A stretch of DNA of 58,905 nucleotides from Phycisphaerae bacterium (GTDB lineage: Bacteria; Planctomycetota; Phycisphaerae; Sedimentisphaerales; UBA12454): the NCBI GenBank assembly GCA_026386845.1, contig JAPLMW010000028.1, forward strand, positions 68,729 to 127,633. The letters are read 5' to 3'. Each line of letters begins with the position of its first letter. Within the stretch, counting starts at the first letter, position 1. Made by a program: the position numbers and the translations under genes. Shown piece after piece: positions 2,480 through 26,453 of the stretch. The notes beneath the pieces are model-generated. The model had not been told where the DNA came from, searched no databases, and worked only from the letters and a program-made list of their open reading frames with translations.

Positions 2480-2569
2480 TAAAAAACAAATCATTGCATC
2501 ATCATATATTACTCCTATAACCTCATTTAATACAAGTCGTTATAACCTTTCCACATATTGCTAATTTTC

Positions 2570-2585
2570 TGGCATGAGTATTGCA
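2570..2585 (+). promoter_or_regulatory. sigma54 (-24/-12) promoter of amtB-glnK
   Basis: TGGCATGAGTATTGCA: GG-N10-GC, close to consensus TGGCAC-N5-TTGCA. Confidence 0.88.
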
Positions 2586-2638
2586 CTATATCATAAAAAA
2601 TACTTTGTTTTTAAGAGATGCAATAAGGAGAACAAAAA

Positions 2639-3877: not shown

Positions 3878-3903
3878 ACCAAAATATCAAAAGGAAACTA
3901 AAT

Positions 3904-4245: not shown

Positions 4246-4270
4246 TAAAAATAGACAATTACGTAAAAAA

Positions 4271-4312
4271 TACATTATTGTAGATTTATATATAAAAATC
4301 TACGATAATGTA
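4271..4312. promoter_or_regulatory. Upstream activator sequence: paired TACA-N4-TGTA boxes
   Basis: TACATTATTGTA 4271-4282 and TACGATAATGTA 4301-4312, 30 bp apart, within a 17-bp one-mismatch inverted repeat. Confidence 0.75.
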
Positions 4313-4401
4313 TATATGCAAAAAATTGTATTGAATTTGTATTCTTTTATAATATCCTTTACAACAATGACCTGCAGCAATTTTTGCATTAAATTACAAT
4401 A

Positions 4402-4417
4402 TGGTATGGTTATTGCA
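4402..4417 (+). promoter_or_regulatory. sigma54 (-24/-12) promoter of the glutamine synthetase gene
   Basis: TGGTATGGTTATTGCA: GG-N10-GC; same distance from the boxes as at amtB. Confidence 0.8.
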
Positions 4418-4520
4418 TATTAAGTAATAGTATAGCTGCAGGGCCGAATGTAAAAATTGTTTTGTATCTCTAAATAATAAAAGGATAATTACAAGTAATC
4501 CAAATAACAGGAGTATAAAA

Positions 4521-6629: not shown

Positions 6630-6660
6630 CAAATTTAAAATTACATAATTAACACAGCAG

Positions 6661-6693
6661 ATGGCCGATTTGGAACAGAAAATCGGCTATTTT
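6661..6693 (+). terminator. Intercistronic stem-loop (weak terminator or mRNA stabiliser)
   Basis: ATGGCCGATTT/AAATCGGCTAT 11-bp stem with one G-U pair, followed by only a short T run. Confidence 0.5.
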
Positions 6694-6707
6694 ATGGAAT
6701 AATAAAA

Positions 6708-9700: not shown

Positions 9701-11267
9701 GCACCACGATATTTATTCAATTGAAGACTTGGCACAGCTTATTTATGACCTGAAATGCAGCAATCCCGGCGTGAAAGTCTCGGTCAAACTCGTCGCTGAA
9801 GTCGGTGTGGGAACCATAGCGGCAGGCGTCGCGAAAGGCAATGCCGATGAGGTCTTAATCAGCGGACACGATGGCGGAACAGGGGCAAGCCCGTTAAGCT
9901 CAATCAAACACACCGGCTGTCCGTGGGAGCTGGGACTTGCGGAAACTCAGCAGGTGCTTGTGAATAATAACCTGCGGGACAGGATTACCGTTCAGGCTGA
10001 CGGACAAATGAAGACCGGCAGAGATGTGGTTATCGGCGCCCTGCTCGGCGCTGAAAGATTCGGATTCGGCACTGCGGCGTTGGTTACATTAGGCTGCACG
10101 CTGCTTCGCAAATGCCACGAAGGAGCCTGCGACTTCGGAATAGCAACACAGGATAAGGAATTAAGGGCAAGATTTGCGGGAAAACCGGAGAACCTCGAAA
10201 GATTTATATTTTTCGTCGCCGAGGAAGCCAGACAGATTATGGCTCAACTGGGATTCAGAAAAGTTGAAGATATGGTCGGCAGAGCCGATTACCTTTGCAC
10301 TAAAAAAGCTATTGAACATTACAAAGCAAAAGGACTGGATTTTTCAGCTATCTTTTATAAGCCCGACACATCGGACGGCAGAGCTATAAGAAAAATTAAT
10401 CCGCAGCCGGATAAATTAGCCGACCACCTTGACTGGCAGATCCTTGAAAAAATAAAAACTGCTATCGACAGTAAACAAAAAGCGGCCATTGAAATGCCGA
10501 TTCGCAATGTCAACAGAACTGTCGGAACAATAATAAGCAACTATATCGTAAGAAAATATGGGCCGAAAGGGCTGCCGGACGGCACTATCGAGTTAAATTT
10601 CACCGGCTCGGCGGGTCAGAGTTTCGGGGCATTTCTTGCGCCGGGAATCACACTGAAACTTATCGGCCAAAGCAATGACTATCTTGGAAAAGGTCTCTCC
10701 GGCGGCAGAATTGTTGTAAAAACGCCTGAGGGCTCACCATTCGCGGCTCAGGAAAATATTATCGTCGGCAATACCCTGCTTTACGGCGCTACAAAAGGTG
10801 AGGCATTCATCAACGGTATGGCAGGAGAAAGATTTGCGGTGCGGAACAGCGGAGTTATCGCGGTCATAGAGGGACTGGGCGACCACGGCTGTGAATATAT
10901 GACTGGCGGAACTGTGGTTGTTCTGGGTAAAACGGGGTGTAATTTTGCGGCGGGAATGAGCGGCGGCATAGCTTACGTTCTCGATGAAATGCAATTATTT
11001 GATACGCTGTGCAATCTCGATATGGTGGAACTTGAAAGTATCCGGCTAAATGAAGACAAAAAACTCTTAAAAGAACTTATCGAAAAACATTATAAATGGA
11101 CGCAAAGCAAACAGGCGGAAAGGATTTTAAATTCCTGGTCAGATATGTTAGGCCGATTTGTGAAGGTTATACCGATTGATTATCGAAAATCACTTGAAAA
11201 GATGAGAGCCGCTGAAGATCGAAACACTGAGACAACGCCTGCGACGGAAGAGGTGTTCTATGGCTGA
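6708..11267 (+). CDS. gltB: Glutamate synthase large subunit
   Basis: HDACGIG N-terminal Cys, HQRYSTNT, EPWDGPA, KQVASGRFGV, AQGAKPGEGGQLPG, 3Fe-4S Cys cluster. Confidence 0.98.
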   Translation: MARKQQTDCGLYEVRTEHDACGIGAVVNISGKSDHSIINYGKEILVNLHHRGAAGADETTGDGAGILFQIPHEFFFAHSKKLNINLPQPGKYAVAMVFSPKDNELREKCLSIFQQAIELHGMKIIGQRIVPVKPDCLGKIALEAEPHISQIFIDACGFERIELERKLFLARKRTEKQIRGKFGDAGNDFYICSLSSRTICYKGMFMAWQLFAYYPDLADENVKSALAIVHQRYSTNTFPNWKLAQPFRCIAHNGEINTLSGNKSSMAAREYKMACEKFGQFMPDCFPVLVPDGSDSACFDNALELLVQAGRTLPHAMMMMIPEAFGQKYHISTDKRAFYEYHSAIMEPWDGPAAMVFMDGQIIGGTLDRNGLRPCRYIVTTDGLAILASEAGVVEFPPEKIQMKGRLQPGHMFLVDTAEGRIVTDNEIKSKISRQKPYRRWLDENRIELRGLFDSPKLVTSDSETIFQRLRMFGFTREELKMIITPMAVNGQEPVGSMGNDAAMAVLSNKPKLLFNYFKQLFAQVTNPPIDPLREGLVMSLMGFTGRKLNILEETPQHCRQLKLPHPILTNEDIERLRSVNRADFKIATVNALFDSQTNDSAKSLRNGIDKLVNNAIEAVKNGSCLLIISDKLASENMAPIPSLLATAAVHNGLLKAGLRADAGIIVESGEPREVMHFCLLCGYGANAINPYLAFECLDEMQRQGELPTSMDPVQIADNYIAAIKKGILKTMSKMGISTLRSYHTAQLFEAIGLNKELINEFFTNTSSRIEGIGLKEIAKETLIRYQHAFEPRKGGELELEFGGEYHYRNSGEAHLWNPITISRLQHAVRNNDQKAYNEYAKAVNQQGQKLCTLRGLFEFKDTQPIPIEEVEPASEIVKRFCTGAMSHGSISKEAHECVAAAMNKIGAMSNTGEGGEDEERYIEKKGKVSLNCAIKQVASGRFGVTINYLSHAKELQIKMAQGAKPGEGGQLPGHKVTEEIAKLRYSTPGVTLISPPPHHDIYSIEDLAQLIYDLKCSNPGVKVSVKLVAEVGVGTIAAGVAKGNADEVLISGHDGGTGASPLSSIKHTGCPWELGLAETQQVLVNNNLRDRITVQADGQMKTGRDVVIGALLGAERFGFGTAALVTLGCTLLRKCHEGACDFGIATQDKELRARFAGKPENLERFIFFVAEEARQIMAQLGFRKVEDMVGRADYLCTKKAIEHYKAKGLDFSAIFYKPDTSDGRAIRKINPQPDKLADHLDWQILEKIKTAIDSKQKAAIEMPIRNVNRTVGTIISNYIVRKYGPKGLPDGTIELNFTGSAGQSFGAFLAPGITLKLIGQSNDYLGKGLSGGRIVVKTPEGSPFAAQENIIVGNTLLYGATKGEAFINGMAGERFAVRNSGVIAVIEGLGDHGCEYMTGGTVVVLGKTGCNFAAGMSGGIAYVLDEMQLFDTLCNLDMVELESIRLNEDKKLLKELIEKHYKWTQSKQAERILNSWSDMLGRFVKVIPIDYRKSLEKMRAAEDRNTETTPATEEVFYG

Positions 11268-12681
11268 GATAAAAGGCTTTTTAAAATATAAACGCAAAAA
11301 AACAGGCTATCGGCCAATTGAGCAGAGAATTCTGGATTACAAAGAAGTCGAGCTTGCTCTTACGCCTGACGATATTATCCAGCAGGCGGCAAGATGTATA
11401 GACTGCGGAATACCATTCTGCCACGGCGTCGGCTGTCCATTGGGAAATAATATACCTGAATTCAACGATATGATTTATAAGGGACAGTGGCAAAAGGCCT
11501 GCCAGATTCTTCATTCGACAAATAATTTTCCGGAAATTACCGCCCGCGTCTGCCCTGCCCCGTGCGAAACGGCCTGCACACTGGCGATAAACGATGAGCC
11601 GGTATTTATAAGACAAATCGAATACCAGATTGTCGAGCGGGGCTTTAAAGAAGGCTGGATAAAACCGGTTATCGCAAAACAAAAAACGGTCAAAAAAATA
11701 GCAATTATCGGTTCAGGACCGGCTGGTTTAGCGGCGGCACAGCAGCTTGCAAGAGCAGGACATAATGTTGTGGTCTTTGAAAAAGACGAAAAAATCGGAG
11801 GCCTTTTAAGATATGGAATACCCGACTTCAAACTTGAAAAAACTGTTTTAGACCGAAGACTTGCCCAGCTTGCCGCTGAAGGCGTTCAATTTCAGACCGG
11901 CGTCGAGGTCGGAAAAGATATATCCTCACACTATCTAAAGAAAATGTTCGATTGCATCTGCCTGACGATGGGCGCAGGTGAACCGCGAGACCTTGCCGTT
12001 ACAGGCAGAGGCTATGAAAATGTCGTATTCGCATGGGATTATCTCGTTCAACAAAACAAAGTCTGCAATGGTGAAAAAATTGAAGGAAAAACAATTACCG
12101 CCAAAGATAAAATCGTAATAGTCATAGGCGGCGGAGATACCGGCAGCGATTGTGTCGGAACTGCCCGCAGACAAGGCGCAAAAAAGATTTATCAGCTTGA
12201 AATACTGCCGAAACCGCCAAACATTAGGCCTGAAGATACTCCCTGGCCGACATGGCCGAGAATTATGAGAACATCCTCGTCGCACGAGGAAGGCTGCGAA
12301 AGAATCTGGGGCGTCAAAACGACAAAACTTTCAGGCGTCGAGACAAGCGTAAGCGAACTGCACGGCTGCCAGGTCGAATGGATAAAAACCCCCAGAGGCT
12401 GGAATATTAAAGAGATAGCAGAGACGGAATTTTCGATAAAGGCAGACCTTGTGATTCTTGCGATGGGCTTTCTGCACGTAAAACAGGAAGGCCTGGTAAA
12501 AAGCCTGCAGCTCAAGCTCGATGAAAACGGCAATATCGCTATTAATGATTTCCGAACCAGCGACCCGGCCGTTTTTGCCGCGGGCGATTCGGTTCTCGGG
12601 GCTTCGCTGGTAGTCAAGGCAATCGACACAGGAAGAAGAGCGGCTGAACAAATTAACAAATGGCTTATGGACAAAAAGTAA
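11260..12681 (+). CDS. gltD: Glutamate synthase small subunit
   Basis: RCIDCGIPFC, RVCPAPCE, GSGPAG, GGGDTGSDC; overlaps the gltB end. Confidence 0.97.
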   Translation: MAEIKGFLKYKRKKTGYRPIEQRILDYKEVELALTPDDIIQQAARCIDCGIPFCHGVGCPLGNNIPEFNDMIYKGQWQKACQILHSTNNFPEITARVCPAPCETACTLAINDEPVFIRQIEYQIVERGFKEGWIKPVIAKQKTVKKIAIIGSGPAGLAAAQQLARAGHNVVVFEKDEKIGGLLRYGIPDFKLEKTVLDRRLAQLAAEGVQFQTGVEVGKDISSHYLKKMFDCICLTMGAGEPRDLAVTGRGYENVVFAWDYLVQQNKVCNGEKIEGKTITAKDKIVIVIGGGDTGSDCVGTARRQGAKKIYQLEILPKPPNIRPEDTPWPTWPRIMRTSSSHEEGCERIWGVKTTKLSGVETSVSELHGCQVEWIKTPRGWNIKEIAETEFSIKADLVILAMGFLHVKQEGLVKSLQLKLDENGNIAINDFRTSDPAVFAAGDSVLGASLVVKAIDTGRRAAEQINKWLMDKK

Positions 12682-12716
12682 ATAATCTGTAAAATGGCAC
12701 AAAAACGGGAAATTAA

Positions 12717-14357
12717 ATGAGCTTAAGAACAGGTCTTGCACAAATAAATACAACCGTCGGGGACTTTGCAGGAAATATTGATAAAATCCGGCAGATGTAT
12801 GCCCGCGCAAAACAGGAAAAAGTCGAGCTGCTTGTCTTTCCGGAACTGAGCATCTGCGGCTATCCGCCGGAAGATTTGCTGCTCAAAAAGCATTTTCTTG
12901 CCGAAAACAAAAAAGCTGTCCAGCAGCTCGCGAAAGATTGTCCCGATATAACAATAATGGCAGGTTTCGCAGAAGCCGCTGACGGGGTCTGCTTCAACGC
13001 TCTGGCTATCCTCGGCGGCGGGAAAATCACAAAAGTTTACCACAAAACCCTGCTGCCGAATTACGGTGTATTCGACGAGAAAAGATATTTCAACAGCGGC
13101 GGTGAACCGGCAGTAATAAAAATAAAAGACATATCCGTAATCTGCACGATATGCGAAGATATATGGGAAATTCAATGGCTGAAAAAATTCCTGTCCGGCA
13201 TACCTGGAAAAAATCTTATTATCAACATATCAGCCTCACCATTTCACGCGGGCAAAATAAAACAGAGAATTGCGGTTCTGGAGGATTGCGCCAGAACATT
13301 AGGCTGCCCTATCGCATACTGCAATGCCGTCGGCGGTCAGGACGAACTTGTTTTTGACGGCAGAAGTATGTTTGTCGATTCGACCGGCAAACTTATCGCC
13401 AAAGCTGCGGCATTTGAAGAAGACTTGCTCATCGCCGACATCGAAGCGGACGGACAGATAAAGGCAGAATCCACACCAACAAAGACCGACTACACAGAGG
13501 AAATTTACCAGGCACTTGTGCTTGGGACAAGAGATTACATCAAAAAGAACGGCTTTAATAAGGCACTTATAGGTTTAAGCGGAGGAATAGACTCGGCTCT
13601 TACCGCCGCTATCGCTGTCGATGCTCTCGGAAAAGAAAATGTCATCGGCGTTACAATGCCGACAAGATTTAACGCGGCTGAAACCATAAGCGATGCTGAA
13701 AAGGTCGCGAAAAATCTCGGTATAGAATTTCATAATATACCCATCGAGCCTGTACTGAAGAATTTCAATCAGGAACTTGGCAAAGTTGCCGGCTGGAATG
13801 AAAAAGGTTTGGCTTATGAAAATCTGCAGGCAAGAATCAGAGGCACTATTCTGATGTCAATGAGCAACCAATTCGGATACCTCGTTATGACGACAGGCAA
13901 TAAGAGCGAAACCGCCGTGGGATACTCAACACTCTACGGCGATACTGCCGGCGGTTTTTCCGCGATAAAAGATGTGCCGAAAACGGTCGTCTATCAGCTA
14001 AGCGAATATGTAAACAAACTGCACGGCAGAGAAATTATACCTCAAAGCGTTATTACAAGAATACCCACAGCCGAACTGCGATTCGGACAGAAAGACAGCG
14101 ATTCGCTGCCGGAATACGACATTCTCGATGGTATATTAAAAGCTTATATCGAAGAAGAAAAATCGCTGCCGGAAATTGTTAAGCAGGGTTTCGATGCCGA
14201 GACTGTTTTAAAAGTCATCGGGATGGTTGACCGAAATGAATATAAACGGCGTCTATGTCCGCCGGGTGTTAAAATCACTCCAAAAGCATTCGGACGAGAC
14301 AGGCGGATGCCTATTACCAATCTTTATCGACAACAAATTCCGCGACAAAATAATTAG
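12717..14357 (+). CDS. nadE: Glutamine-dependent NAD+ synthetase
   Basis: Nitrilase-like domain (FPEL, LPNYGVFDEKRYF, ICED) plus synthetase domain (GLSGGIDS, ENLQARIRG, TGNKSE). Confidence 0.96.
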   Translation: MSLRTGLAQINTTVGDFAGNIDKIRQMYARAKQEKVELLVFPELSICGYPPEDLLLKKHFLAENKKAVQQLAKDCPDITIMAGFAEAADGVCFNALAILGGGKITKVYHKTLLPNYGVFDEKRYFNSGGEPAVIKIKDISVICTICEDIWEIQWLKKFLSGIPGKNLIINISASPFHAGKIKQRIAVLEDCARTLGCPIAYCNAVGGQDELVFDGRSMFVDSTGKLIAKAAAFEEDLLIADIEADGQIKAESTPTKTDYTEEIYQALVLGTRDYIKKNGFNKALIGLSGGIDSALTAAIAVDALGKENVIGVTMPTRFNAAETISDAEKVAKNLGIEFHNIPIEPVLKNFNQELGKVAGWNEKGLAYENLQARIRGTILMSMSNQFGYLVMTTGNKSETAVGYSTLYGDTAGGFSAIKDVPKTVVYQLSEYVNKLHGREIIPQSVITRIPTAELRFGQKDSDSLPEYDILDGILKAYIEEEKSLPEIVKQGFDAETVLKVIGMVDRNEYKRRLCPPGVKITPKAFGRDRRMPITNLYRQQIPRQNN

Positions 14358-14378
14358 TTTACAGCACGGATGTAAAAA

Positions 14379-17300
14379 ATGCCCAAACGAACAGATATCC
14401 ATAAAATAATGATAATAGGCTCCGGCCCTATAGTAATAGGTCAGGGCTGCGAGTTCGATTACTCCGGCGCCCAGGCCTGCAAGGCTCTGAAAAAAGAAGG
14501 CTATCAGGTAATACTGGTCAACAGTAACCCGGCAACCATTATGACAGACCCTGAACTTGCCGACCACACCTATATCGAACCGATTACGCCGGAAATGATT
14601 GAAAAAATCATCAAAAAAGAAAAACCGGATTGCATTTTGCCGACACTCGGCGGACAAACAGGACTTAACACGGCCGTCGCGCTTGCAGAAAGCGGCGTCC
14701 TGAAAAAATACAATGTTAAACTCATCGGAGCAAACCTCGCCACAATAAAAAAGGCTGAGGAACGCGACAGATTTAAAAAGATTATTCTCGATATCGGCCT
14801 TGAAGTGCCGAAAAGCGGATATGTCCGCAACTGGGAAGAAGCTCAAAAAATTGTCGCGCAGGTCGGTTTTCCCGCGATTATCCGCCCTTCTTATACCCTT
14901 GGCGGAACAGGTGGAAATGTCGCGTATAACGCTGAGGAATACAAGGAATTTATCCACTGGGGGCTAAACCTCAGCCCTAAAGGAGAGGTGCTGGTAGAAG
15001 AATCGGTCCTCGGCTGGAAAGAATATGAATTAGAGGTAATGCGGGATAAAAAAGACAATGTTGTGATTGTTTGCTCGATAGAAAATCTCGACCCGATGGG
15101 AATTCATACCGGCGACAGCATTACGGTAGCGCCGGCACAGACACTAACCGATAAAGAATATCAAACAATGCGCGACGCGGCGCTGAAAATCATAAGAGCA
15201 ATCGGCGTTGAAACCGGCGGCTCAAATATCCAGTTTGCCGTCAATCCCCAAAACGGCAAAATGTATGTAATCGAGATGAATCCTCGTGTTTCGAGAAGCT
15301 CATCTCTTGCCTCAAAAGCCACCGGCTTTCCAATCGCCAAAATCGCTTCGCTGCTGGCAGTCGGCTATACGCTCGATGAAATACCAAACGACATAACAAA
15401 AAAGACACCCGCCTGTTTCGAGCCGTCAATAGATTACTGCGTTGTAAAATGGCCGCGGTTTACATTTGAAAAATTCCCGGCAACAAATCCGGAACTGACT
15501 ATCCAGATGAAAAGCGTCGGCGAAGCAATGGCAATCGGCAGAACATTTAAAGAGGCATTCCAGAAAGCCATACGCTCGCTTGAAATCGACCGATATTCGC
15601 TCGACAGAAAACATATCGACTCAAAAATAGATAACGAACGGCTTAAGCAGATACTGCGGGCTAACCGCTGGGATAAAATCTGGTATGTCGCCGAGGCTCT
15701 GAGAAGAAAACTGCCGATTAATGAAATTTATGAGCTTACGAAAATTGACCCCTGGTTTTTGAACAATATTGACCAGATTGTTCAGTTTGAGGACAAAATA
15801 AGCATAAAAAATCTCAAACAGGCCAAGAAACTGGGCTTTAGCGATAAGTATATCGCATCAAAATTAAATATGCCTGAGACACAACTCAGAAAACAGCGAA
15901 TCGCCGACGGAATTTGTGCCGTTTATAAGATTGTCGATACCTGCGGGGCAGAGTTTGAGGCAAATACGCCTTATTTGTACTCTACGTATGAAGACCAGTG
16001 CGAGGCAAATCCGACAAAAAGAAAGAAAGTCATCATACTCGGCGGCGGACCAAACCGAATCGGACAGGGAATTGAATTCGACTACTGCTGCTGCCACGCT
16101 GCATTCGCGCTGAAGGAAATCGGTATCGAATCCATAATGGTAAACTGTAATCCCGAAACGGTCAGCACAGATTACGATACATCAGACAGGCTTTATTTTG
16201 AGCCTTTGACTTTCGAAGATGTGATGAACATTGTCGAAAAAGAAAAGCCTGACGGTGTTATCGTTCAGTTCGGAGGCCAAACACCCCTGAAACTGGCAAA
16301 CGCCCTGTCAAAAGCAGGCGTGAAAATCATCGGCACAAGTCCCGACAGTATCGATGCCGCAGAAGACAGAAAACGGTTTAACAAAATAGTCGAAAAACTA
16401 AAGCTTAACCAGCCGCTGAGCGGCACAGCAATGAATTATGCGCAAACGGTCAAAATCGCAAGGAAATTGGGCTACCCCCTGCTTATACGGCCATCGTTCG
16501 TATTGGGCGGAAGAGCGATGCAAATTGTCTATGACGAAACAGAACTGAAAAGCTGCGTTGAAAACGCTATCGCTGTTTCAGATAAACACCCAATTTTAAT
16601 CGACAAATTTCTTGATGATGCAGCCGAGCTTGACGTTGACGCAATAAGCGACGGCAAAACCGTCGTTATCGGCGGGATTATGGAACACATCGAAGAGGCT
16701 GGTATTCATTCAGGAGACAGTGCCTGCTCTCTGCCGCCGTTTTCGTTAAGCCCTGCCTTAATCAAGGAGATAAAATGGCAGACAAAAATGCTCGCACTGG
16801 AACTAAATGTAATAGGTCTGATGAATATCCAGTTTGCAGTAAAGGATAATCAGATTTACATACTCGAAGTCAATCCGCGGGCATCGAGAACAGTGCCGTT
16901 TGTCAGTAAGGCTATCGGCGTTCCGCTGGCCAAATTGGCCGCAAAAGTGATGGCCGGAAAAACGCTTAAAGAACTCGGATTTACAGAAGAAGTACACAGA
17001 AGCTATTATTCCGTCAAAGAAGCTGTCTTTCCATTCCTGAAATTCCCCGGCTGCGATACGCTGCTGGGGCCTGAAATGCTTTCGACCGGCGAAGTAATGG
17101 GATTGTCCGATGACTTCGGCATCGCTTATGCTAAATCGCAGATTGCAGCGGGGAATAACCTGCCTACAGGCGGAAATATCTTTATCAGCGTTAAAGATGC
17201 TGACAAGCCAAAGGCTGTCGAGATAGCAAAAAAACTCCATCAGATGGGATTTAAACTTCTCGCTACAAAGGGAACCTGCATCGAGCTAATCAAGAACAAT

Positions 17301-17564
17301 GTGCCATCGGAATTCGTATTGAAAATGACCGAAGGCAGACCGCACATTGTTGATTTGATTATCAATAATCAGATTGCCATGATTATAAATACCACGGTCG
17401 GCAAACAAACAATCAAGGATTCGTTTGCGATAAGAAGAACCGCCCTTGACCGCAATGTGCCTTATACTACGACAATCAGAGGCGCCGCGGCGGTTACAAA
17501 AGCAATCGAATCGCTAAAACAGAAAAAGACAGATGTAAAGCCAATACAACTGTATTACAAATAA
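14379..17564 (+). CDS. carB: Carbamoyl-phosphate synthase large subunit
   Basis: MPKRTDI...[17 protein letters not shown]; two ATP-grasp halves; C-terminal MGS-like domain. Confidence 0.98.
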
Positions 17565-17577
17565 GGAAATAAAGTGA

Positions 17578-17663
17578 ATCCCGTTAGAATCAGAAATTGA
17601 AAAAAAGATTTTTAACGGGATGAATCAATGTTTATAATTTAAAAAGGATTCTAACGGGATGAA
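17578..17663. repeat. Inverted/direct repeat element overlapping the carA start
   Basis: ATCCCGTTAGAATC 17578-17591 is the exact reverse complement of GATTCTAACGGGAT 17647-17660; a second right-arm copy gives a TAACGGGATGAA direct repeat at 17613-17624 and 17652-17663. Confidence 0.75.
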
Positions 17664-18774
17664 AGGCATATTATTACTCGAAGATGGAACATGCTTTCGC
17701 GGCTGCGGATTCGGAGCTGAAGATAAAAAGTGCGGAGAAGTAGTCTTTAATACCGCTATGAGCGGTTATCAGGAAATACTTACAGACCCTTCTTATCACG
17801 AACAGATTGTAACAATGACCTATCCTTTAATAGGCAATTACGGCACAAACACGCTGGACGTGGAATCCAATAAACCTTATCTGAGCGGATTTGTCGTAAA
17901 GGAAAACTGCAATTTCCCAAGTAATTGGCGAAATCAAATTTCGCTCGATGATTACCTTAAAAAACATAACATACCCGCTCTCGAAGACATTGACACGCGA
18001 AAATTAGTTATGCTTCTCCGCCAAACCGGTGCGATGAAAGGTATTATCTGCACAGATGGAACAAGCATTAAAAACCTGAAAGACGAACTTGACAAATATC
18101 CCGGCCTTGTTGATAGAGATATTGTAAAAAACGTCTGCACAAAGAAAAGCTATACGTGGGATAAACCTGTTGAAAATGAATTCGGCCAGACCATAAAACC
18201 ACAGGCTAAATACAACGTTATCGTTTTCGATTACGGCATAAAGCAAAATATTCTGCGGCTTTTAGTTTCGCACGGCTGCAAGGTTACGGTCGTGCCGGCA
18301 GATACAACCGCTGAAGAGGTTCTTAAACAAAAACCTGATGGCGTATTTTTGAGCAACGGCCCCGGCGACCCCGGTCCTATAAGCTATGCCATCGAAACCA
18401 TACGCAAACTGCTGGGCAAAGTACCAATATTCGGGATATGTCTCGGCCATCAGCTTTTAGGTCTTGCGGTCGGCGGCGATAGATTTAAATTAAAATTCGG
18501 CCATCACGGTGCAAACCATCCGGTCAAAAACCTAATCACCGAAAAGATTGAAATTACCAGTCAGAACCACGGATTCTGCATCGACCCGGATTCACTGCTT
18601 GATAAAGATGTGCAGATTACACATATGAATTTGAATGATAACACACTGGAAGGTTTCCGCTGCAAAAATGTGCCGGCATTTGCCGTGCAGTATCACCCCG
18701 AAGCCTCGCCCGGCCCGCACGATTCAAATTATTTGTTCGGCGAATTTATAGAACTAATGGACAAAGTAAAATAA
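17659..18774 (+). CDS. carA: Carbamoyl-phosphate synthase small subunit
   Basis: GEVVFNTAMSGYQE, SNGPGDP, GICLGHQ, QYHPEASPGPHD. Confidence 0.98.
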   Translation: MKGILLLEDGTCFRGCGFGAEDKKCGEVVFNTAMSGYQEILTDPSYHEQIVTMTYPLIGNYGTNTLDVESNKPYLSGFVVKENCNFPSNWRNQISLDDYLKKHNIPALEDIDTRKLVMLLRQTGAMKGIICTDGTSIKNLKDELDKYPGLVDRDIVKNVCTKKSYTWDKPVENEFGQTIKPQAKYNVIVFDYGIKQNILRLLVSHGCKVTVVPADTTAEEVLKQKPDGVFLSNGPGDPGPISYAIETIRKLLGKVPIFGICLGHQLLGLAVGGDRFKLKFGHHGANHPVKNLITEKIEITSQNHGFCIDPDSLLDKDVQITHMNLNDNTLEGFRCKNVPAFAVQYHPEASPGPHDSNYLFGEFIELMDKVK

Positions 18775-18781: not shown

Positions 18782-21202
18782 CTATTGAAATTTCTCATAC
18801 GGCCACATTTCAAGGCCGCCGTCGAGAACCTTTACATCCTTAAAGCCCTCGTGTTTTAATATAATCGCAGCCTCATAAGCCCTGAGCGAATAATTACAAA
18901 ACGCCACAATAGGTTTATTCCTGTCAAGCTCAACAAAACGGGAACGCAGCGAAGCAAGAGGAATGAAAACCGCACCGTTCATCCTTTCGTGCTGATACTC
19001 CGACGGTGTTCTTACGTCCAGCAAAGTAAAATCCTTCTTTTCCTGTAACATCTGCCAGACTTCTTTCGGATTGATGCCGTCCATCAGGCCGTCGAGTTTG
19101 TTGCGGGCTACATTTGCGGCTGTGATAATATTGTCAATCACCGGCGAATACGGCGGAGCATAACACAAATCAAGGTTCGCAATCTGCTCAACCGTCATCT
19201 TCGCCGCAATCGCAGTCGCGGCAACATCAATTCGCTTATCGCCATTGCCGGCGCCTATGGCCTGTGCGCCGAGAAGCCTGCGGGTCTCTTTATCAACAAC
19301 AAGTTTTAACATCACAACCTCTGCACCGGGTACAAAATGCTCTCTGTCCGGCGCGGGAACAAGAACTGAAACAACATTGAAACCAGCCTGTTTGGCCGTA
19401 AATTCCGTAAGACCTGTAACGGCAACGTTATAATCAAAGACCTTACAGGCCACGGTGCCGAGGATCGGGGCAAACGTATCGTTTCCGCCGCAGATATTTA
19501 CCGCGGCCACTCTGCCCTGCTTATTAGCGGTTGAGCCGAGAGGCACATAACAGGGTTTTTGCGTAATCATATCTGTATTCTCGACGCAATCACCGGCAGC
19601 ATAAATGTCCGGGTCTGATGTCTGCATTTTAGGATTGATTTTGATACCGCCGGTTGTGCCGATTTGGAGGCCGGCCTGCTCTGCCAATGCGACATTGGGC
19701 CTGTGGCCGACCGCGATTATCACGAGATCAGCAGGATATGTGCCTCTGCCGGTTACGACTGATTCGACAGTGCCATTACCCTGAAACTTTTTCACCTCAG
19801 TCTCAATAAGAACTCGCACACCGTGCGATTCAAGCTGATTTTCGACGAGCATCGCCAATTCGCTATCGAGAAGGCGGAAAATCTGCGGAAGTTTTTCGAC
19901 AATTGTCACCCTGCAGCCTTTTTTAACAAGGGCTTCGGTCATTTCAATTCCTACAAGGCCGCCGCCGACAATAACAACATCACGAGCCTTGCCCCTGTCG
20001 AGGGCAGATTTTATACCTTCGGCATCGGTTACACCGTGAAGGGTAAAAATGTTGCCAAGCTTGATTCCTTCTATATCAGGCATAACAGCCACTGAACCGG
20101 TTGCGAGAACAAGTTTATCGTAATCGAGCAGCGATTCTACCCCATCGAGCAGATATTTTACGCGGACATATTTCTTTTTGCGGTCAATCTCAATCGCCTC
20201 GGTCTGATTCATAAGGTGAACATTCTTGACCTGCTGGAAGAATATCGGGTCGCGCACAACACCGGCAGGCGAACTCATCAGCTCGCTCTGGTCTTTGACA
20301 GTGCCGCCGATATAATACGGCAGACCGCAGCCCGCATAAGAGAGCAGCCTGCCCTTCTCGACAATAGTTACATCGGCATCGGGGTCAAGCCGCATAATTT
20401 TAGCGGCAACCTTAGGCCCCGCCGCTACTCCGCCAATTATTACTATTTTCATTGGCTTTTTCATTTTTTTATCTCCTGATATCTGCTGGGCTGCTGGTTG
20501 GGGGGCAGCCTTGAGATTTACTATAAGTTCAGCACCTCCGAGGTGCGATTTTTCGATATGGACGTTTCCGCCTACGGCGTCAACCATCGCCTTTACAAAG
20601 GCAAGGCCCAGACCGATGCCGGGCCGTGATGAGGCGTGTGCGCCGGATGTTCTGTAAAAGGGCTGAAAAACATTCCGGCGGTTTTCCTCAGAAATTCCAA
20701 TGCCCGAATCAGCGATTCTTATCTGATATGAATGAATTGAACGGTCATATAAAAGAATCATTTCAATCCTGCCGTTGTCAGGCGTGTATTTAACAGCATT
20801 CGACAGCAGTGCCTCAAGAACCTCCGTTATTGCTGCTTCAGTTCCAAATGCCCAGGCAGGTTCAGCGTCAATTTTCGCTGTAAGCGTGATATTATGCGGG
20901 CGGGCATGCTGTATCCAGGCGGCTGAGGTTTTGCGAACAAGCAGGGAAAGCTCGACCGTACCGCTGAATGCCCTGGGGTCGCTGACGGCCTTAGAGATTA
21001 TAAGAAGTCTCTGCGCGGCCTTGAGCGACTCATCACAACGCTCAATCGCCCTTTGCAGAAGGTCTTTCTGGCGAGGCGTAAGCGGGCCGGCAAATTCGCC
21101 GAGGAGCGTCTGCAAAATCGTGCCAACGGTAGAAACCGGTCCTCTGAGCTGATGAGCTACCAGCGACGCGAATTTCAGAGGGTCGGTTATAAGGTCTTTC
21201 AT
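18782..21202 (-). CDS. Fusion: histidine kinase (HisKA+HATPase) - CoA-disulfide reductase-type flavoprotein - rhodanese
   Basis: H-box VAHQLRGP, N-box LLSNAVKYT, G1 DSGIGI, F-box FQPFYR, G2 GIGLGLA; then GGVAAG, SYAGCGLPY, GGGLVG, YAPPYS; then LLDVRT...AFCNYSLRA. Start 21202 chosen because ATG 21214 overlaps the -10 box. Confidence 0.88.
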   Translation of the reverse strand: MKDLITDPLKFASLVAHQLRGPVSTVGTILQTLLGEFAGPLTPRQKDLLQRAIERCDESLKAAQRLLIISKAVSDPRAFSGTVELSLLVRKTSAAWIQHARPHNITLTAKIDAEPAWAFGTEAAITEVLEALLSNAVKYTPDNGRIEMILLYDRSIHSYQIRIADSGIGISEENRRNVFQPFYRTSGAHASSRPGIGLGLAFVKAMVDAVGGNVHIEKSHLGGAELIVNLKAAPQPAAQQISGDKKMKKPMKIVIIGGVAAGPKVAAKIMRLDPDADVTIVEKGRLLSYAGCGLPYYIGGTVKDQSELMSSPAGVVRDPIFFQQVKNVHLMNQTEAIEIDRKKKYVRVKYLLDGVESLLDYDKLVLATGSVAVMPDIEGIKLGNIFTLHGVTDAEGIKSALDRGKARDVVIVGGGLVGIEMTEALVKKGCRVTIVEKLPQIFRLLDSELAMLVENQLESHGVRVLIETEVKKFQGNGTVESVVTGRGTYPADLVIIAVGHRPNVALAEQAGLQIGTTGGIKINPKMQTSDPDIYAAGDCVENTDMITQKPCYVPLGSTANKQGRVAAVNICGGNDTFAPILGTVACKVFDYNVAVTGLTEFTAKQAGFNVVSVLVPAPDREHFVPGAEVVMLKLVVDKETRRLLGAQAIGAGNGDKRIDVAATAIAAKMTVEQIANLDLCYAPPYSPVIDNIITAANVARNKLDGLMDGINPKEVWQMLQEKKDFTLLDVRTPSEYQHERMNGAVFIPLASLRSRFVELDRNKPIVAFCNYSLRAYEAAIILKHEGFKDVKVLDGGLEMWPYEKFQ

Positions 21203-21212
21203 ACAAATTAAC

Positions 21213-21241
21213 ATTATACTTTATGTTAAAAACATTGGCAA
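21213..21241 (-). promoter_or_regulatory. sigma70-type promoter of the kinase-reductase fusion
   Basis: TTGCCA-N17-TATAAT on the minus strand; ATG 10 nt after the -10 box. Confidence 0.65.
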
Positions 21242-21251
21242 TAATTGAAAT

Positions 21252-21280
21252 TTGTCAGATTATTTAATTTATGCTATACT
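21252..21280 (+). promoter_or_regulatory. sigma70-type promoter (extended -10) of the GH20-anmK-murQ operon
   Basis: TTGTCA-N17-TATACT preceded by TGn; ATG 21288 lies 7 nt after the -10 box. Confidence 0.65.
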
Positions 21281-21287
21281 AATTTGT

Positions 21288-23015
21288 ATGACTGTCAGGG
21301 ATGAAAAATTATTTGAAAAATTGCTGATACCGATAAGGAAAGTTACCTTTCAAAAGGGTTTTTTCCAGACCGGCAAGACATTCAAGCCGAAAACATATCA
21401 CGATAAAACAGTCAAAAACGGCGAAGGATACAAAATCAGGATTACGCCAAGAGGAATTGAAGTTTTCGCCGCGACAGACGCCGGAGTATATTATGCCATA
21501 CAGACATTAAAAGACCTTGCGAAGATTTACGGAAACAGGCTGCCTGCATGCGTAATAGAGGACGAGCCGGACTTTAAAAGACGAGGCGTTTACCTTGACT
21601 GTTCCAGAGGAAAAGTGCCGAAACTTAAGACGCTTAAGGATTTAGTTATACGACTTGCACACTGGAAAATAAACGAATTGCAGTTATATATCGAAAATGT
21701 CTTTGCCTTCAAAAAACATCCCCAAATCGGCAAAGGTTACAGTCCATTTACGCCGGATGAGATTCTCGAACTTCAGGATTATTGCCGGATGCACCACATA
21801 AAACTGGTTGGTTCACTGGCGAGTTTCGGTCATTTTGAAAAAATCCTCGCTCTGCCGAAATATCGCCATCTCGGCGAGATGCCCGGTTTCAGGGGTTTTC
21901 CCGGAGGCACAACGCTCTGCCCTGCCGATGCCGGCTCGATTAAACTTGTCAGCGAACTTTACAGCGAATTTATACCGCTGTTTGAGGCAAAGGATTTTAA
22001 TGTCTGCTGCGATGAAACGTGGGAATTAGGTAAAGGCCGAAGCAAAAAATTGGCAGACCGTATCGGAACAGGTCGGGTTTATCTGGAGTTCCTTTTAAAA
22101 ATTTATCGCCTGTGTCAAAAATATGGAAAACGAATGAATGTTTGGGCAGATATTGTCCTCAAATATCCCGAATTGATGAGCAAATTGCCAAAAGATATAG
22201 TCCTGCTTAACTGGGAATATGAACAGGACGGTAAAAACATTTATAAAACCAAAGACATAGCTAAAGCAAAAATTCCTTTTATGGTCTGCCCCGGCACAAG
22301 CGGCTGGCTGACTCACGGTTCCCGGCTGCCTAATTCAATAACGAATGTAACTAATTTTGCTGCGCAAGGTCGTAAATTTGGCGCCGAAGGCCTGCTCAAT
22401 ACCGACTGGGGTGATAACGGCCATCGCAATTTTCTGGGAGCAAGCCTTCATAGTTTTGCACATGGAGCGGCACATAGCTGGAACGGCAAAGCGGTTGATA
22501 ATGCTAAATTTACCGACAATTTCTGCACGCATTTTTTCGGCGAACATACGGGCCGATTGGCCAATGCAATTCGTTTACTGGGCAGCACTTACATTACCTG
22601 TGGAACAAACGTTCCGAACAAAAGCTGGCTGTATTTCGCACTCATTGAGCCCATAAAAAACAATCAACCTGATAATCCGATTGATTTGATGAAAGAAAAA
22701 GGCCTGCGAAAAATAATCGAGCAACTTTCAGATGAATCTATCTGGCCGAAATTGCCGAAATCGGCTGAAAATTTCGAAAAAATCTCTTTTGACGAATTGA
22801 AACTTGCCGCGAAAATGGATTGTCTCTCCGCAAGGCGGGCACTTGCGGTAAAAATCCTGCGGGCCGGCAAAAAAGTAAATAAGAAGGAATTACAGTTCAT
22901 AAATAAACAGATGAAGAATATAGCAAAAGACTTTAAGAAATTGTGGCTGATACGAAATAAAGTCTCACGTTTGCAAGATAACTTACGATTATTCAAACAG
23001 GCAGGAATAAAATAA
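21288..23015 (+). CDS. Glycoside hydrolase family 20 (beta-N-acetylhexosaminidase-like), no obvious signal peptide
   Basis: EGYKIRITP..IEV, IEDEPDFKRRGVYLD.SR, KINELQLY.E, catalytic DE in NVCCDETWE, TDWGDNGH. Confidence 0.82.
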   Translation: MTVRDEKLFEKLLIPIRKVTFQKGFFQTGKTFKPKTYHDKTVKNGEGYKIRITPRGIEVFAATDAGVYYAIQTLKDLAKIYGNRLPACVIEDEPDFKRRGVYLDCSRGKVPKLKTLKDLVIRLAHWKINELQLYIENVFAFKKHPQIGKGYSPFTPDEILELQDYCRMHHIKLVGSLASFGHFEKILALPKYRHLGEMPGFRGFPGGTTLCPADAGSIKLVSELYSEFIPLFEAKDFNVCCDETWELGKGRSKKLADRIGTGRVYLEFLLKIYRLCQKYGKRMNVWADIVLKYPELMSKLPKDIVLLNWEYEQDGKNIYKTKDIAKAKIPFMVCPGTSGWLTHGSRLPNSITNVTNFAAQGRKFGAEGLLNTDWGDNGHRNFLGASLHSFAHGAAHSWNGKAVDNAKFTDNFCTHFFGEHTGRLANAIRLLGSTYITCGTNVPNKSWLYFALIEPIKNNQPDNPIDLMKEKGLRKIIEQLSDESIWPKLPKSAENFEKISFDELKLAAKMDCLSARRALAVKILRAGKKVNKKELQFINKQMKNIAKDFKKLWLIRNKVSRLQDNLRLFKQAGIK

Positions 23016-24124
23016 TGCGTATAGTCGGTTTAATGTCAGGCACAAGTGCTGACGGCGTTGATGCCGCTGTTGTTGACATCAATAAAAACAAAGTTAAACT
23101 GCTGGCTTTTGACACATTCGAATACTCACCGCAATTAAGAAAAAATATTCTTGATATTGCCGAACAAAAAACCTGCAGGGCCGCGGATATCAGCCGACTG
23201 AATTTCGCTATCGGAGAAGTTTTTGCTGATGCAGTTATCAAATTATGCAGAAAAAATAAAATCAATCTGAAAACTATTGATTTGATAGGTTCGCACGGCC
23301 AAACGATTTATCATAATCCAAAAGGTAAAATCCGCTCAACGCTCCAGATTGGCGAACCATCCGTAATTGCTTATAAAACCGGGAAAACCTGCGTAGCGGA
23401 TTTCAGGCCAAAAGATATGGCGGCAGGCGGACAAGGCGCTCCCCTGGTGCCATTCGCGGATTACTGGCTGTTCAAACATAAAAGAAAAAACCGGGCCGTT
23501 CAGAATATCGGTGGAATCGCCAATGTAACCTATCTTCCTGCGGGGACAGGACTTAAAAAAACAATCGCCTTCGATACAGGGCCGGGAAATATGATTATCG
23601 ACCGAATCGCAACTATTTTCAGCAAAGGAAAATTACATTACGATAAAGACGGTAAAATCGCCGCGAAAGGCAAGGTAAATAAAAAACTGCTCGATGAAAT
23701 GATGAGGCATCCGTTTCTGCGGAAATTACCGCCTAAATCGACCGGCAGAGAAGAATTCGGAGCGGCTTATACCGGAAAATTTATTAAACGGTCGATATCG
23801 TTTGAGGATATGCTCGCTACCGCCACCGCTTTTACAGCCGATAGTATCGTAGATGCGTATAAAAAATTCCTGCCTTCCATGCCGGACGAAATAATACTCT
23901 GCGGCGGCGGCGCGAAAAATAAAACGTTAGTTAAAATGCTGCGGCAGAATATAAAAAGCAAAATACTTTTGACCGATGATTTCGGCATAAACAGCGATGC
24001 CAAAGAAGCCGTCTCTTTTGCCATCTTGGCTTATGCAGCAATAAAGGGCATCGCAAATAACGTCCCCGGCGCTACAGGGGCAAAAAAATCATTAGTTTTA
24101 GGGAAAGTAATACCGGCACAATGA
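23015..24124 (+). CDS. anmK: Anhydro-N-acetylmuramic acid kinase
   Basis: GLMSGTSADGVD, GSHGQT, DFR..DMAAGGQGAPLVP, NIGGIAN, FDTGPGN, PKSTGRE. Confidence 0.96.
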   Translation: MRIVGLMSGTSADGVDAAVVDINKNKVKLLAFDTFEYSPQLRKNILDIAEQKTCRAADISRLNFAIGEVFADAVIKLCRKNKINLKTIDLIGSHGQTIYHNPKGKIRSTLQIGEPSVIAYKTGKTCVADFRPKDMAAGGQGAPLVPFADYWLFKHKRKNRAVQNIGGIANVTYLPAGTGLKKTIAFDTGPGNMIIDRIATIFSKGKLHYDKDGKIAAKGKVNKKLLDEMMRHPFLRKLPPKSTGREEFGAAYTGKFIKRSISFEDMLATATAFTADSIVDAYKKFLPSMPDEIILCGGGAKNKTLVKMLRQNIKSKILLTDDFGINSDAKEAVSFAILAYAAIKGIANNVPGATGAKKSLVLGKVIPAQ

Positions 24125-25029
24125 AAACACATAAATTACTTCCAACCACAGAAAAGCGTAATCGCAGAAGCAGGAACATCGACCGGTTGTCAACTATGCA
24201 AATAGTTAAGTTAATCAACGCAGAAGACAGATTAGTCGCACCGGCAGTCGGCAAAGAGTATAAAAAAATTGCCGCGGCGGTCGATATGATAGTCGAGCGT
24301 TTTAAGAAAAACGGCAGGCTCTTTTACGTCGGGGCCGGCACAAGCGGCAGGCTCGGCGTTTTAGACGCCTCGGAATGTCCGCCGACATTCGGCGTAAGCC
24401 CCCTGCTGGTGCGGGGCATTATCGCTGGCGGCAAACGGGCATTGGTAAGGGCTGTTGAAGGAGCTGAAGATAAGGTAAATGACGGCGTTGCCGCTATAAA
24501 CAGATACAAAATTTCCGCAAAAGATGTTGTCGTCGGCATCGCAGCTTGCGGACTTACGCCCTTTGTGAGGGTCGCACTGAAAGAAGCAATGAAAAAAGGG
24601 GCTGGCACAATTTTTATCACCTGTGCGCCGGAGGCAATCAAAGATATCCCGGCCCAAATAATTATAAATCCTGTCGTCGGGCCGGAGGTAATCACCGGCT
24701 CAACAAGAATGAAGGCAGGCACCGCGACAAAACTTGTACTTAATACTCTTACGACTACGGCTATGATAAAGATGGGTAAAGTTTATGGCAATCTGATGGT
24801 TGACCTGATGGCGACAAATAATAAATTACGAGACAGGTCTGTTCGAATTGTTTCAGAAATGACCGGTTTATCTAAATCAAAAACTGCCAGTCTCCTCAAA
24901 AAAGCAAAAGGAAAAGTTAAGACTGCTATTGTGATGCACTTTCGCGGTATTGATTTTCAGCAGGCTGAAAATATCCTCAACAAAAATGAACAATCTTTGA
25001 GGAAAGCAATAGGAAGACAATGGTTTTGA
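24121..25029 (+). CDS. murQ: N-acetylmuramic acid 6-phosphate etherase
   Basis: TEKRN, GAGTSGRLGVLDASECPPTFG, GPEVITGSTRMKAGTA. Confidence 0.96.
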   Translation: MKTHKLLPTTEKRNRRSRNIDRLSTMQIVKLINAEDRLVAPAVGKEYKKIAAAVDMIVERFKKNGRLFYVGAGTSGRLGVLDASECPPTFGVSPLLVRGIIAGGKRALVRAVEGAEDKVNDGVAAINRYKISAKDVVVGIAACGLTPFVRVALKEAMKKGAGTIFITCAPEAIKDIPAQIIINPVVGPEVITGSTRMKAGTATKLVLNTLTTTAMIKMGKVYGNLMVDLMATNNKLRDRSVRIVSEMTGLSKSKTASLLKKAKGKVKTAIVMHFRGIDFQQAENILNKNEQSLRKAIGRQWF

Positions 25030-26453
25030 GCGGAATTGATTTAACAATAGTTTTATCGGCGGTTTTTCTGCTTTTTGTAATTTCCTATATTTTTGGCCGC
25101 AGGGAAAAAAACACAAATGATTTCTTCCTCGGTGAAAGAAAAATCCCTTCCATTGTGGCCTGTCTGTCTTTTGTCGCTACTGAAGTCAGCGCACTGACAA
25201 TTGTAGGAGTACCTGCAACCGCTTACAGCGAAAACTGGGAGTATCTGCAATTTTTCATTGGCTCGGCGGCAGCGCGAATAATGGTAGCATTCTTATTTAT
25301 TCCTGTTTTTTACAAATATAATTGTACAAGTATTTATGAGTTTTTAAGGCATCGTTTCGGACCCCAAACTCAATACGCCGGCTCGATTTTCTTCTTTGTT
25401 ACACGTCTAACAGCTTCAGGCGTAAGGCTTTATGCAGCCTGTATGGGAATCGGGATTATTTTAGGGTGGAGCCTGGGACAATCGCTGCTTATTTTCACTA
25501 TTGTAAGCATCATTTTTATCGCATTTGGCGGAATAAAAGCAGTTGTCTGGGCCGGAGCATACCAGACTATCATTTTTTTCTCCGCAGGTATCGCATTATT
25601 AATATATCTTTATTTACATATTGAAGGCGGTCTATCATCTGCATGGCAGATAGCAGATAATGCAGGACGATTGAGTATTTTTAAATTCGATTTTAACCTC
25701 AACGACCCCACAACTTTCTGGGCAGGTACTGCCAACGCTTTTTTTATCGGTTTGGCGGTTTTTGGCACAGACCAGGAACTAATGCAGCGATTGCTCACCG
25801 TTAAAACAAGAAAGAAAAGTCAAAACGCGATTTTCCTGACAATAGCAACAGCGTTTCCAATACTCTGCATATATCTTGCAATCGGCACTTTGCTTTACGT
25901 GTTCTTCCAGCAAAATCCTCAGGCAATCCAGCCGGCAAAGACCAAAGAGGTTATTTCGTATTTTACGGCAAATTTTTTGCCGGCAGGGTTGAAAGGACTA
26001 ATCCTTTCAGCGATTATATTAGCCAGTATAGATTCGCCGCTAAGCTCGCTGTCGTCTTCATTCGTGATGGATATCTATCGCCCTCTTATCAGGAAAAACG
26101 CGACTGAAAAACACTATTTATTTATCTCGCGGACTGGAGTAATTGGTTTTGGTTTAATTTTAGCGATTATTGCGATAACTTGTCAGCCGGTCGAAAATAT
26201 TCTGTGGTTTGCATTCGAGATAATTTCTCTTACCGGCGGAGCTACGCTGGGCATTTTTCTGCTCGGCGTTCTTACAAAAAGGAAAGCAAATATCGGCAAT
26301 GTCGTAGCGATGATTATCAGTACCCTATCTATGATTGCACTGCTACTTCTTTCCCATAAAGGAGTTATAAATCTGGCGTGGAGCTGGCTGATTGTCTTAG
26401 GAACGGCGATGACTTTTGCCCTGAGTTATCTTTTCAGTATTTATCGCAAATAA
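25020..26453 (+). CDS. Sodium:solute symporter (SSS family)
   Basis: Polytopic membrane protein; DFFLG.R, ATEVSALT..G.P, SIYEFL..RFG, GGIKAVVW, DQELMQR. Confidence 0.9.
   Translation: MVLSGIDLTIVLSAVFLLFVISYIFGRREKNTNDFFLGERKIPSIVACLSFVATEVSALTIVGVPATAYSENWEYLQFFIGSAAARIMVAFLFIPVFYKYNCTSIYEFLRHRFGPQTQYAGSIFFFVTRLTASGVRLYAACMGIGIILGWSLGQSLLIFTIVSIIFIAFGGIKAVVWAGAYQTIIFFSAGIALLIYLYLHIEGGLSSAWQIADNAGRLSIFKFDFNLNDPTTFWAGTANAFFIGLAVFGTDQELMQRLLTVKTRKKSQNAIFLTIATAFPILCIYLAIGTLLYVFFQQNPQAIQPAKTKEVISYFTANFLPAGLKGLILSAIILASIDSPLSSLSSSFVMDIYRPLIRKNATEKHYLFISRTGVIGFGLILAIIAITCQPVENILWFAFEIISLTGGATLGIFLLGVLTKRKANIGNVVAMIISTLSMIALLLLSHKGVINLAWSWLIVLGTAMTFALSYLFSIYRK

Follow-up and report, generated by a model that had tools for sequence, protein, structure and literature searches.

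The subject of this report is a single gene on the minus strand of a 58,905-nucleotide stretch of the genome of a Phycisphaerae bacterium (assembly GCA_026386845.1, contig JAPLMW010000028.1, positions 68,729 to 127,633; below, "the window" means this whole stretch and G000 the genome it belongs to). The gene joins, in one reading frame, a bare histidine kinase core to a complete flavoprotein of the Npsr type that ends in a rhodanese domain. The fusion is real and not an artefact of assembly. As to what it does, I give roughly even chances to the view that the product is a cytoplasmic, homodimeric, bifunctional protein whose enzyme half feeds the state of sulfur and redox metabolism into an orphan kinase of the HisKA type.

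The original prediction, made from the letters of the window, had supposed an unbroken frame through the junction, and public sequencing confirms it. Assembled contigs of three studies cross the linker between the halves without indels: a 3213-nt contig of run X1 spans 19284-21300 and one of X3, a different study, spans 20057-20635, both with 0 gaps, and a contig of X4 spans 20441-20773. No insertions or deletions at the gene are listed in the assembled contigs of 4 public runs. Then there are the homologues, sought in a collection of 5.8 billion proteins. Among the best 120 matches, which run from 97% down to 55% identity to the query and are about 800 amino acids (aa) long, HATPase_c and Pyr_redox_2 occur together in every one and Rhodanese in 119, the sole exception being a partial record; in these relatives the two halves are one protein, not separate genes. 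A mis-assembly, frameshift or read-through peculiar to this metagenome-assembled genome (MAG) can be regarded as already refuted, for although a relative, G124, has the gene split over two adjacent frames, and although one low-depth contig of X4 (depth 3, side 20) omits 74 nt at 20668-20743, within the catalytic and ATP-binding (CA) domain, the independent assemblies of three studies cross the junction cleanly, all 120 best homologues are full-length fusions, and the catalytic residues are invariant. The 74-nt skip fits the pattern of joints derived from other organisms.

The kinase core comes first in the protein (residues are numbered throughout from the 810-aa open reading frame, or ORF, that begins at 21214). 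It was described at the outset as bare, with its H, N, G1, F and G2 boxes and no sensor ahead of them, and that description holds: the translation contains the H box at H21, N139, D169xGxG, F186 and G199xGxG, with just 16-20 residues ahead of H21. Most members of the family have 16-18 residues upstream of the His, and in those with longer ORFs the N-terminal extension contains no Pfam domain. Residues 10-238 align with the cores of HK853, WalK and CpxA, H21 falling in register with the phosphoacceptor His. The HATPase_c model matches residues 126-236 with 73.5 bits (cut-off 26.4); the HisKA match at residues 14-75 reaches 22.0 bits, under the gathering score of 26.9, which some homologues exceed in precomputed domain lists. 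The rest of the chain carries, by Pfam, Pyr_redox_2 (residues 255-547, 223 bits), Pyr_redox_dim and a C-terminal rhodanese domain. The FAD and NADH glycine motifs, redox Cys296, the YAPPY motif (residues 685-689) and rhodanese Cys773, all of which had been claimed for this half, are present in the translation.

In an alignment of 121 rows (the window's own protein fills two of them) the residues that matter for catalysis do not vary. H21, Q22 and P26 of the H box, N139, A140, T144 and P145 of the N box, D169, S170, G171 and G173 of the G1 box, F186 of the F box, and G199, G201, G203 and L204 of the G2 box are the same in 121 of 121, and so is redox Cys296, within the motif S-x-x-x-C-x-L-P-Y. 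The FAD/NADH glycines G261, G262, G266 and G417 are likewise invariant. Mean identity to the query is 0.57 in the dimerization and histidine phosphoacceptor (DHp) helices, 0.53 in the CA domain, 0.34 in the linker, 0.73 in the reductase and 0.64 in the rhodanese domain. Both halves are inherited under purifying selection. The coordinates of these features are collected in Table 1.

Table 1. Positions in the window of the fusion gene, its promoter and the parts of its product
Feature	Position	Strand	Basis
Sigma-70-like promoter of the fusion gene, TTGCCA-17-TATAAT	21213..21241	-	11/12 consensus matches
Fusion protein coding sequence, 806 aa (likely extent)	18782..21202	-	ORF and homologue length
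DHp / HisKA dimerization and phosphoacceptor helices, residues 14-75	20990..21175	-	Pfam, alignment
Phosphoacceptor H21	21152-21154	-	alignment
Conserved DHp Cys60	21035-21037	-	alignment
HATPase_c ATP-binding domain, residues 126-236, N/G1/F/G2 boxes	20507..20839	-	Pfam, alignment
Variable linker, Ala/Lys/Glu/Pro-rich, residues 237-254 (18 residues)	20453..20506	-	alignment
FAD/NADH-binding pyridine nucleotide-disulfide oxidoreductase domain, residues 255-547	19574..20452	-	Pfam, alignment
Redox Cys296	20327-20329	-	alignment
Pyr_redox_dim dimerization domain, residues 589-693, then YAPPY motif	19136..19450	-	Pfam, alignment
Rhodanese domain, residues 716-804	18803..19069	-	Pfam, alignment
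Rhodanese active-site Cys773	18896-18898	-	alignment

What kind of enzyme is the second half? The closest solved relative of residues 255-804 is the NADH persulfide reductase (Npsr) of Archaeoglobus fulgidus (6pfz, 507 bits), followed by B. anthracis CoADR-RHD (3icr, 368 bits), Shewanella loihica Npsr (3nta, 355 bits) and the CoA-persulfide reductase (CoAPR) of E. faecalis (8a56, 340 bits). The abstract of PMC7969121 describes AfNpsr as an enzyme that acts specifically on persulfide and polysulfide, binds its catalytic CoA tightly and has a Cys in its active site. The nearest NCBIfam equivalogs are those of CoA-disulfide reductase (CoADR), TIGR03385 and NF007123. Because the protein scores under both of these curated cut-offs (431.9 against 578.8 and 388.7 against 458, respectively), the enzyme half is, by profile, not CoA-disulfide reductase proper and should not be named so. 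Almost no column distinguishes the enzyme half of the fused proteins from close unfused orthologues, which argues that it is under the same constraints as the free enzyme, and no other CoADR-like gene was found in G000, a genome 95.8% complete. Since the fusion gene is the only one of its kind there, and since its enzyme half is unchanged with respect to the free orthologues, the protein is probably also catalytic and very probably still serves as the cell's persulfide reductase.

Of the 401 genomes in a sample of the class, 26 have the fusion, G000 included, and these span seven GTDB families: the window's own, where 6 of 6 relatives have the gene, and six others. In a sample of 401 genomes from across the phylum it occurs in 3, G124 with its two adjacent frames among them. 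Fused homologues come from Sedimentisphaerales, Phycisphaerae, Anaerohalosphaeraceae and the cultured Anaerobaca lacustris (P0121), and the family amounts to at least 120 clusters at 90% identity. Two further fused homologues bear the labels of other phyla, P0045 from a MAG labeled Krumholzibacteria and P0283 from one labeled Lentisphaerae; the labels suggest horizontal transfer or mis-binning, and the kinase core of P0045 branches within the clade of the window's own family. Most of the other sampled genomes have an unfused enzyme with rhodanese domain (CoADR-Rhd) of about 560 aa. Many genomes also hold a CoADR-Rhd paralogue, about 40% identical, that is extended by TusA and DsrE domains. Such TusA/DsrE (DrsE_2)-extended paralogues, 815-852 aa long, are found at L097, L098, L099, L100, L105 and L106 and form a clade of their own.

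The kinase core, for its part, is seldom met without the enzyme. In the class sample, matches to the core at E<=1e-40 are fused in 25 of 26 genomes and alone in one, G510. A phmmer scan of 1.84 billion representatives with the core gave 78 at E<=1e-30, and the close and the short matches were scanned with Pfam. The core matches so scanned are fused proteins or their fragments, together with four stand-alone cores, 238-239 aa long, whose C-terminus falls exactly at the junction. Every near-length protein that matches the core at E<=1e-42 carries Pyr_redox_2 (67/67), while shorter proteins that match at E<=1e-35 number just 8 and are mostly contig-end fragments; the other kinase representatives checked are generic multidomain kinases, 26-32% identical to the core. 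One cluster of stand-alone cores is reproducible as intact ORFs on at least 6 contigs. The stand-alone core of G510 is all but identical to a congener's fused core; non-coding sequence comes after it, and an unfused enzyme lies on another contig. Scans of contigs from genomes and metagenomes with the stand-alone core P0127 returned generic kinases only and one more fused gene, L187. Judged by these searches, the core is a lineage of its own, found essentially only fused to the enzyme or as rare stand-alone cores of secondary origin.

The trees tell a similar story, though both are quick trees with open backbones, so that the number of fusion and loss events is uncertain. In the maximum-likelihood tree of the cores, fused and stand-alone cores make up one clade (SH-aLRT 99, branch 1.44), the stand-alone ones scattered inside the fused. 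The enzyme tree repeats the groupings of the core tree; fused and unfused forms interleave there in one clade, and G460 holds a fused and an unfused enzyme that are sisters. In G496 (L089:3200-3315) the frame ahead of an unfused CoADR-Rhd retains the CA domain's last strand, a remnant that, as read from the frame, shows secondary loss of the kinase half. Because the groupings of the two trees match, they point to one fusion event, vertical co-inheritance of the halves, and repeated secondary loss of either.

I infer that the enzyme half is the input of the kinase. This is the most economical reading, and a plausible one, because the protein has no other part that could take up a signal, because both modules are dimers, and because the core clade lives essentially only in the enzyme's company. 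HisKA and CoADR-type modules are both obligate dimers. The mechanism I propose starts from a kinase core joined, through a flexible linker some 18 residues long, to a complete, NADH-dependent persulfide/polysulfide reductase of the Npsr/CoAPR type with its rhodanese domain. The state of the enzyme (occupancy by FAD and NADH, a mixed disulfide or persulfide of Cys296 with CoA, a persulfide on the rhodanese) would alter how the DHp and CA domains meet, perhaps by way of the conserved Cys60 of the DHp helices. Phosphotransfer to an orphan response regulator would then report the load of sulfane sulfur against the supply of NADH. A plausible output would be the choice of electron sink, H2 or sulfur reduction, in fermentative anaerobes. 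The strongest form of the proposal is that this is the first two-component kinase with a complete and active flavoenzyme as a sensor behind the kinase, in which turnover or thiol state of the reductase gates phosphotransfer, possibly via Cys60, and so sets H2 evolution against sulfur reduction in anaerobic Phycisphaerae. That larger claim I hold to be possible but on balance doubtful.

Several observations weigh against the enzyme as input. The linker differs among members (the measured segment is 28-37 residues long, with 34% mean identity to the query), is rich across the family in Ala, Lys, Glu, Pro, Asp, Ser and Gly, and looks like a flexible tether rather than a signaling helix or a rigid element of transmission. 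A fusion-specific conserved surface on the enzyme half was sought, and none appeared at strict thresholds, four weak columns at loose ones. The flexible linker and the lack of such a surface speak against rigid mechanical coupling and leave room for the other explanations taken up below. Either half can be lost, as the unfused enzymes interleaved with fused ones and the stand-alone cores attest. Nor is the rhodanese Cys sacrosanct: it is kept in 103 of 121 fused rows, the window's protein included, and replaced by Ser or Gly in 17, the losses falling in several lineages, among them one relative in the window's family and A. lacustris, whose protein has Gly at this position. Close unfused orthologues retain it in 19 of 19 cases. 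By match counts, loss of this Cys has no association with the presence of a second CoADR paralogue (4/7 against 8/17 genomes).

The H box is also a cause for caution. It reads H-Q-x-x-S/G/A-P rather than H-E/D-x-x-T/N, the residue after the His (H+1) being Gln in all 121 rows and that at H+4 being Ser in 57, Gly in 46, Ala in 9, Glu in 8 and Thr in 1. Among the other kinase representatives, H-box-like matches have Glu or Asp at H+1 in 255 of 283 cases and Thr or Asn at H+4 in 230 of 283. An acidic residue at H+1 assists autophosphorylation, and Thr or Asn at H+4 is needed for phosphatase activity. The clade may therefore be one of slow, atypical or one-directional kinases. Finally, the neighborhoods offer no partner. 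In 20 homologous loci, with flanks of up to 8.5 kb, there is no shared neighbor beyond close relatives and no conserved neighboring regulator; at 3 of the 20 a single-domain receiver is encoded no more than two genes away, but these receivers are mutually unrelated and have no close orthologue in G000.

Because no response regulator is conserved beside it, the kinase is, on the evidence of gene order, an orphan. The original prediction had remarked that the window contains no response regulator, and this stands: Pfam scans of the window's other ORFs detected no receiver domain, and the window's contig has none either: all 32 PF00072 matches in G000 are on other contigs. About nine receiver proteins of G000 have no kinase nearby and are possible partners; the orphan receivers are on contigs C13, C56 (two), C17 (two), C65 (two), C7, C76 and C70. 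The one on C13 has orthologues of 62-77% identity in 4 of 5 relatives of the window's family; elsewhere there is one possible match at 47% and otherwise matches at the level of paralogues, a divergence at which the profile cannot part orthologues from paralogues. ECF sigma factors are nearby in 3 of the 20 loci, and hydrogenase genes flank the fusion gene in 3 of the 20. In G706, of the window's family (L069:470-10987), the fusion gene lies directly upstream of rex; behind rex, on that strand too, come genes for a Fer4_22 protein, an FAD/NAD-binding protein and a membrane complex resembling group-4 NiFe hydrogenase with an antiporter-type subunit. In the fusion protein of G706 the rhodanese Cys is replaced by Ser, and this cluster of group-4 hydrogenase and rex was not found in G000. 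In G529 (second copy, L073:9-10927) an NADH-linked NiFe hydrogenase operon, made up of NuoE/NuoF-like proteins, MvhD and the small and large NiFe subunits, runs co-directionally into the fusion gene, and at L081 the same hydrogenase families, along with a single-domain receiver, converge on it.

What else might the protein be? One possibility dispenses with the enzyme as sensor. The core has a single Cys, C60, placed in DHp helix 2 by alignment with HK853, and it is kept in 113 of 121 rows (93%) and in 4 of 5 stand-alone cores, which suggests a thiol switch on the kinase itself. As sulfane sulfur rises, C60 would be persulfidated, CoA-thiolated or bridged by a disulfide across the dimer, and the enzyme would act as an NADH-using eraser, its active site able to reach C60 thanks to the flexible linker. 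The region of DHp helix 2 around C60 is near the part that contacts the receiver. I consider this account rather improbable, though the best of the alternatives, for eight rows have Ile or Ser at position 60 and keep the whole architecture, and loss of C60 does not co-vary with loss of Cys773 (0 double losses among 121 rows, where about 1 would be expected by chance). A different account, and a somewhat less likely one, puts the enzyme first: the kinase core would regulate or serve the reductase, through ATP binding, gating by autophosphorylation or stabilization of the dimer, with no signaling to a regulator at all. It would sit well with a gene that is the only CoADR-like one in G000, with an enzyme half more conserved than the kinase half (0.73 against 0.53-0.57), with a non-canonical H box and with the failure to find a partner regulator. 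Yet an invariant phosphoacceptor His and a complete ATP lid are the signature of phosphotransfer, intact ORFs of stand-alone cores survive on several contigs, and close unfused enzymes evidently work without the core.

It may also be that the fusion means little. Two neighboring genes could have merged through loss of a stop codon, the halves working independently and the kinase sensing through a separate partner, so that the fusion does no more than fix stoichiometry or co-expression. The linker, variable and of low complexity, frequently keeps a Met right ahead of the first beta strand of the enzyme, and this Met was probably the start codon of a once separate enzyme gene; fission and loss have recurred, and there are no enzyme residues specific to the fusion. 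It is hard, however, to square such indifference with a core clade that exists essentially only with the enzyme (67 of 67 near-length matches, 25 of 26 genomes of the class), with retention across at least seven families, and with a core that has no other domain to receive a signal. Of the explanations compatible with a real fusion, I hold this the least probable, a little behind the enzyme-first account. The enzyme as input of an orphan kinase remains the reading I prefer.

A word is needed about where the gene begins and what surrounds it. On the minus strand the site's longest ORF spans 18782..21214 and encodes 810 aa; the public homologues (best 120 database matches) are 806 aa long and start at its second Met. 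Because the -10 box of the strong sigma-70-like promoter overlaps the first in-frame ATG, and because of the homologues' length, the true start is likely the ATG at 21202, and the likely gene 18782..21202, the extent first proposed. Its mRNA is then likely near-leaderless, translated from 21202. Contigs of the metatranscriptome run X19 match the gene in four places, each with 1-16 differences; their share of words is small and DNA carry-over is possible.

The gene stands by itself. It is convergent with carA, the last member of a co-directional nitrogen-assimilation block (881-18774, plus strand) whose end lies 7 nt from the stop of the fusion gene and which comprises a GAF-sigma54 activator, amtB, a P-II protein, type III glutamine synthetase, the large and small subunits of glutamate synthase, NAD synthase, carB and carA. 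On the other side, diverging from the fusion gene, is a cell-wall recycling cluster (21252-26453, plus strand) of GH20 hexosaminidase, anhydro-MurNAc kinase (anmK), a MurQ-like SIS protein and a sodium:solute symporter (SSF), which also adjoins the fusion gene in a relative of the same genus, G726. Farther off, at 48856-56190 on the minus strand, are three large ORFs, of 576, 975 and 839 aa, that match nothing in Pfam at E<=1e-6, adjoined by an 828-aa SASA/BD-FAE carbohydrate esterase.

How does the protein compare with what is known? It had been put forward as an architecture outside the characterized systems, and a full-text literature search (supplementary files aside) turned up no published kinase fused to a CoADR/Npsr enzyme or carrying a C-terminal soluble oxidoreductase. 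Database labels of the fused proteins are "FAD-dependent oxidoreductase" or, once, "histidine kinase". In nearly all histidine kinases that have been studied, the signal arrives through domains that precede the DHp helices. A core that starts about 16 residues before its phospho-His and has only an enzyme, C-terminal to it, would have to receive its signal by a different route, if it is regulated at all. The sulfane-sulfur sensors known so far are one-component repressors and NreB-like Fe-S kinases. If the proposal is true, it adds a two-component route to the sensing of sulfane sulfur and could explain how fermentative planctomycetes of sediments match electron disposal to the availability of sulfur. 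The family is large, and because one of its members is in the validly named, cultured A. lacustris, the proposal is directly testable.

Each half has familiar counterparts. Residues 255-810 align end to end with the solved Npsr/CoAPR enzymes (6pfz, 3nta, 3icr, 8a56), including the FAD and NADH motifs, the redox Cys and the rhodanese Cys loop, but those enzymes are 551-588 aa long and have no N-terminal kinase. The paralogues of the same class that are extended by TusA and DsrE share the core of the enzyme, at about 40% identity, but their extensions are C-terminal sulfur carriers, they lack a kinase, and they fall in a separate clade. The HisKA sensor kinases (T. maritima HK853, 3dge/2c2a; WalK, 4u7n; CpxA, 4biu) have the same DHp and CA core, with the His and the boxes in register. 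Unlike them, the fusion protein has no transmembrane, HAMP, PAS or other N-terminal input; its extra domains all lie C-terminal of CA and make up a whole enzyme, and its identity to other kinases is at most 32%.

There are also precedents for the idea, if not for the arrangement. RegB, ArcB, NreB, MmoS and LOV kinases read redox or sulfur via a cysteine, an Fe-S cluster or a flavin. PMC9918477 presents NreB as a sulfide sensor. All of these rely on small N-terminal cofactor domains or on quinone sites in the membrane, whereas the fusion protein's candidate input is a complete catalytic flavoenzyme, some 560 residues long, behind the kinase. In trigger enzymes and in transporter-kinase fusions of the CbrA type, a working metabolic protein doubles as a sensor. 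The transporter of CbrA is N-terminal and membrane-bound; the oxidoreductase of the fusion protein is C-terminal and soluble. Both halves belong to well-known families, and it is the architecture, with the route of the signal that it implies, that is new.

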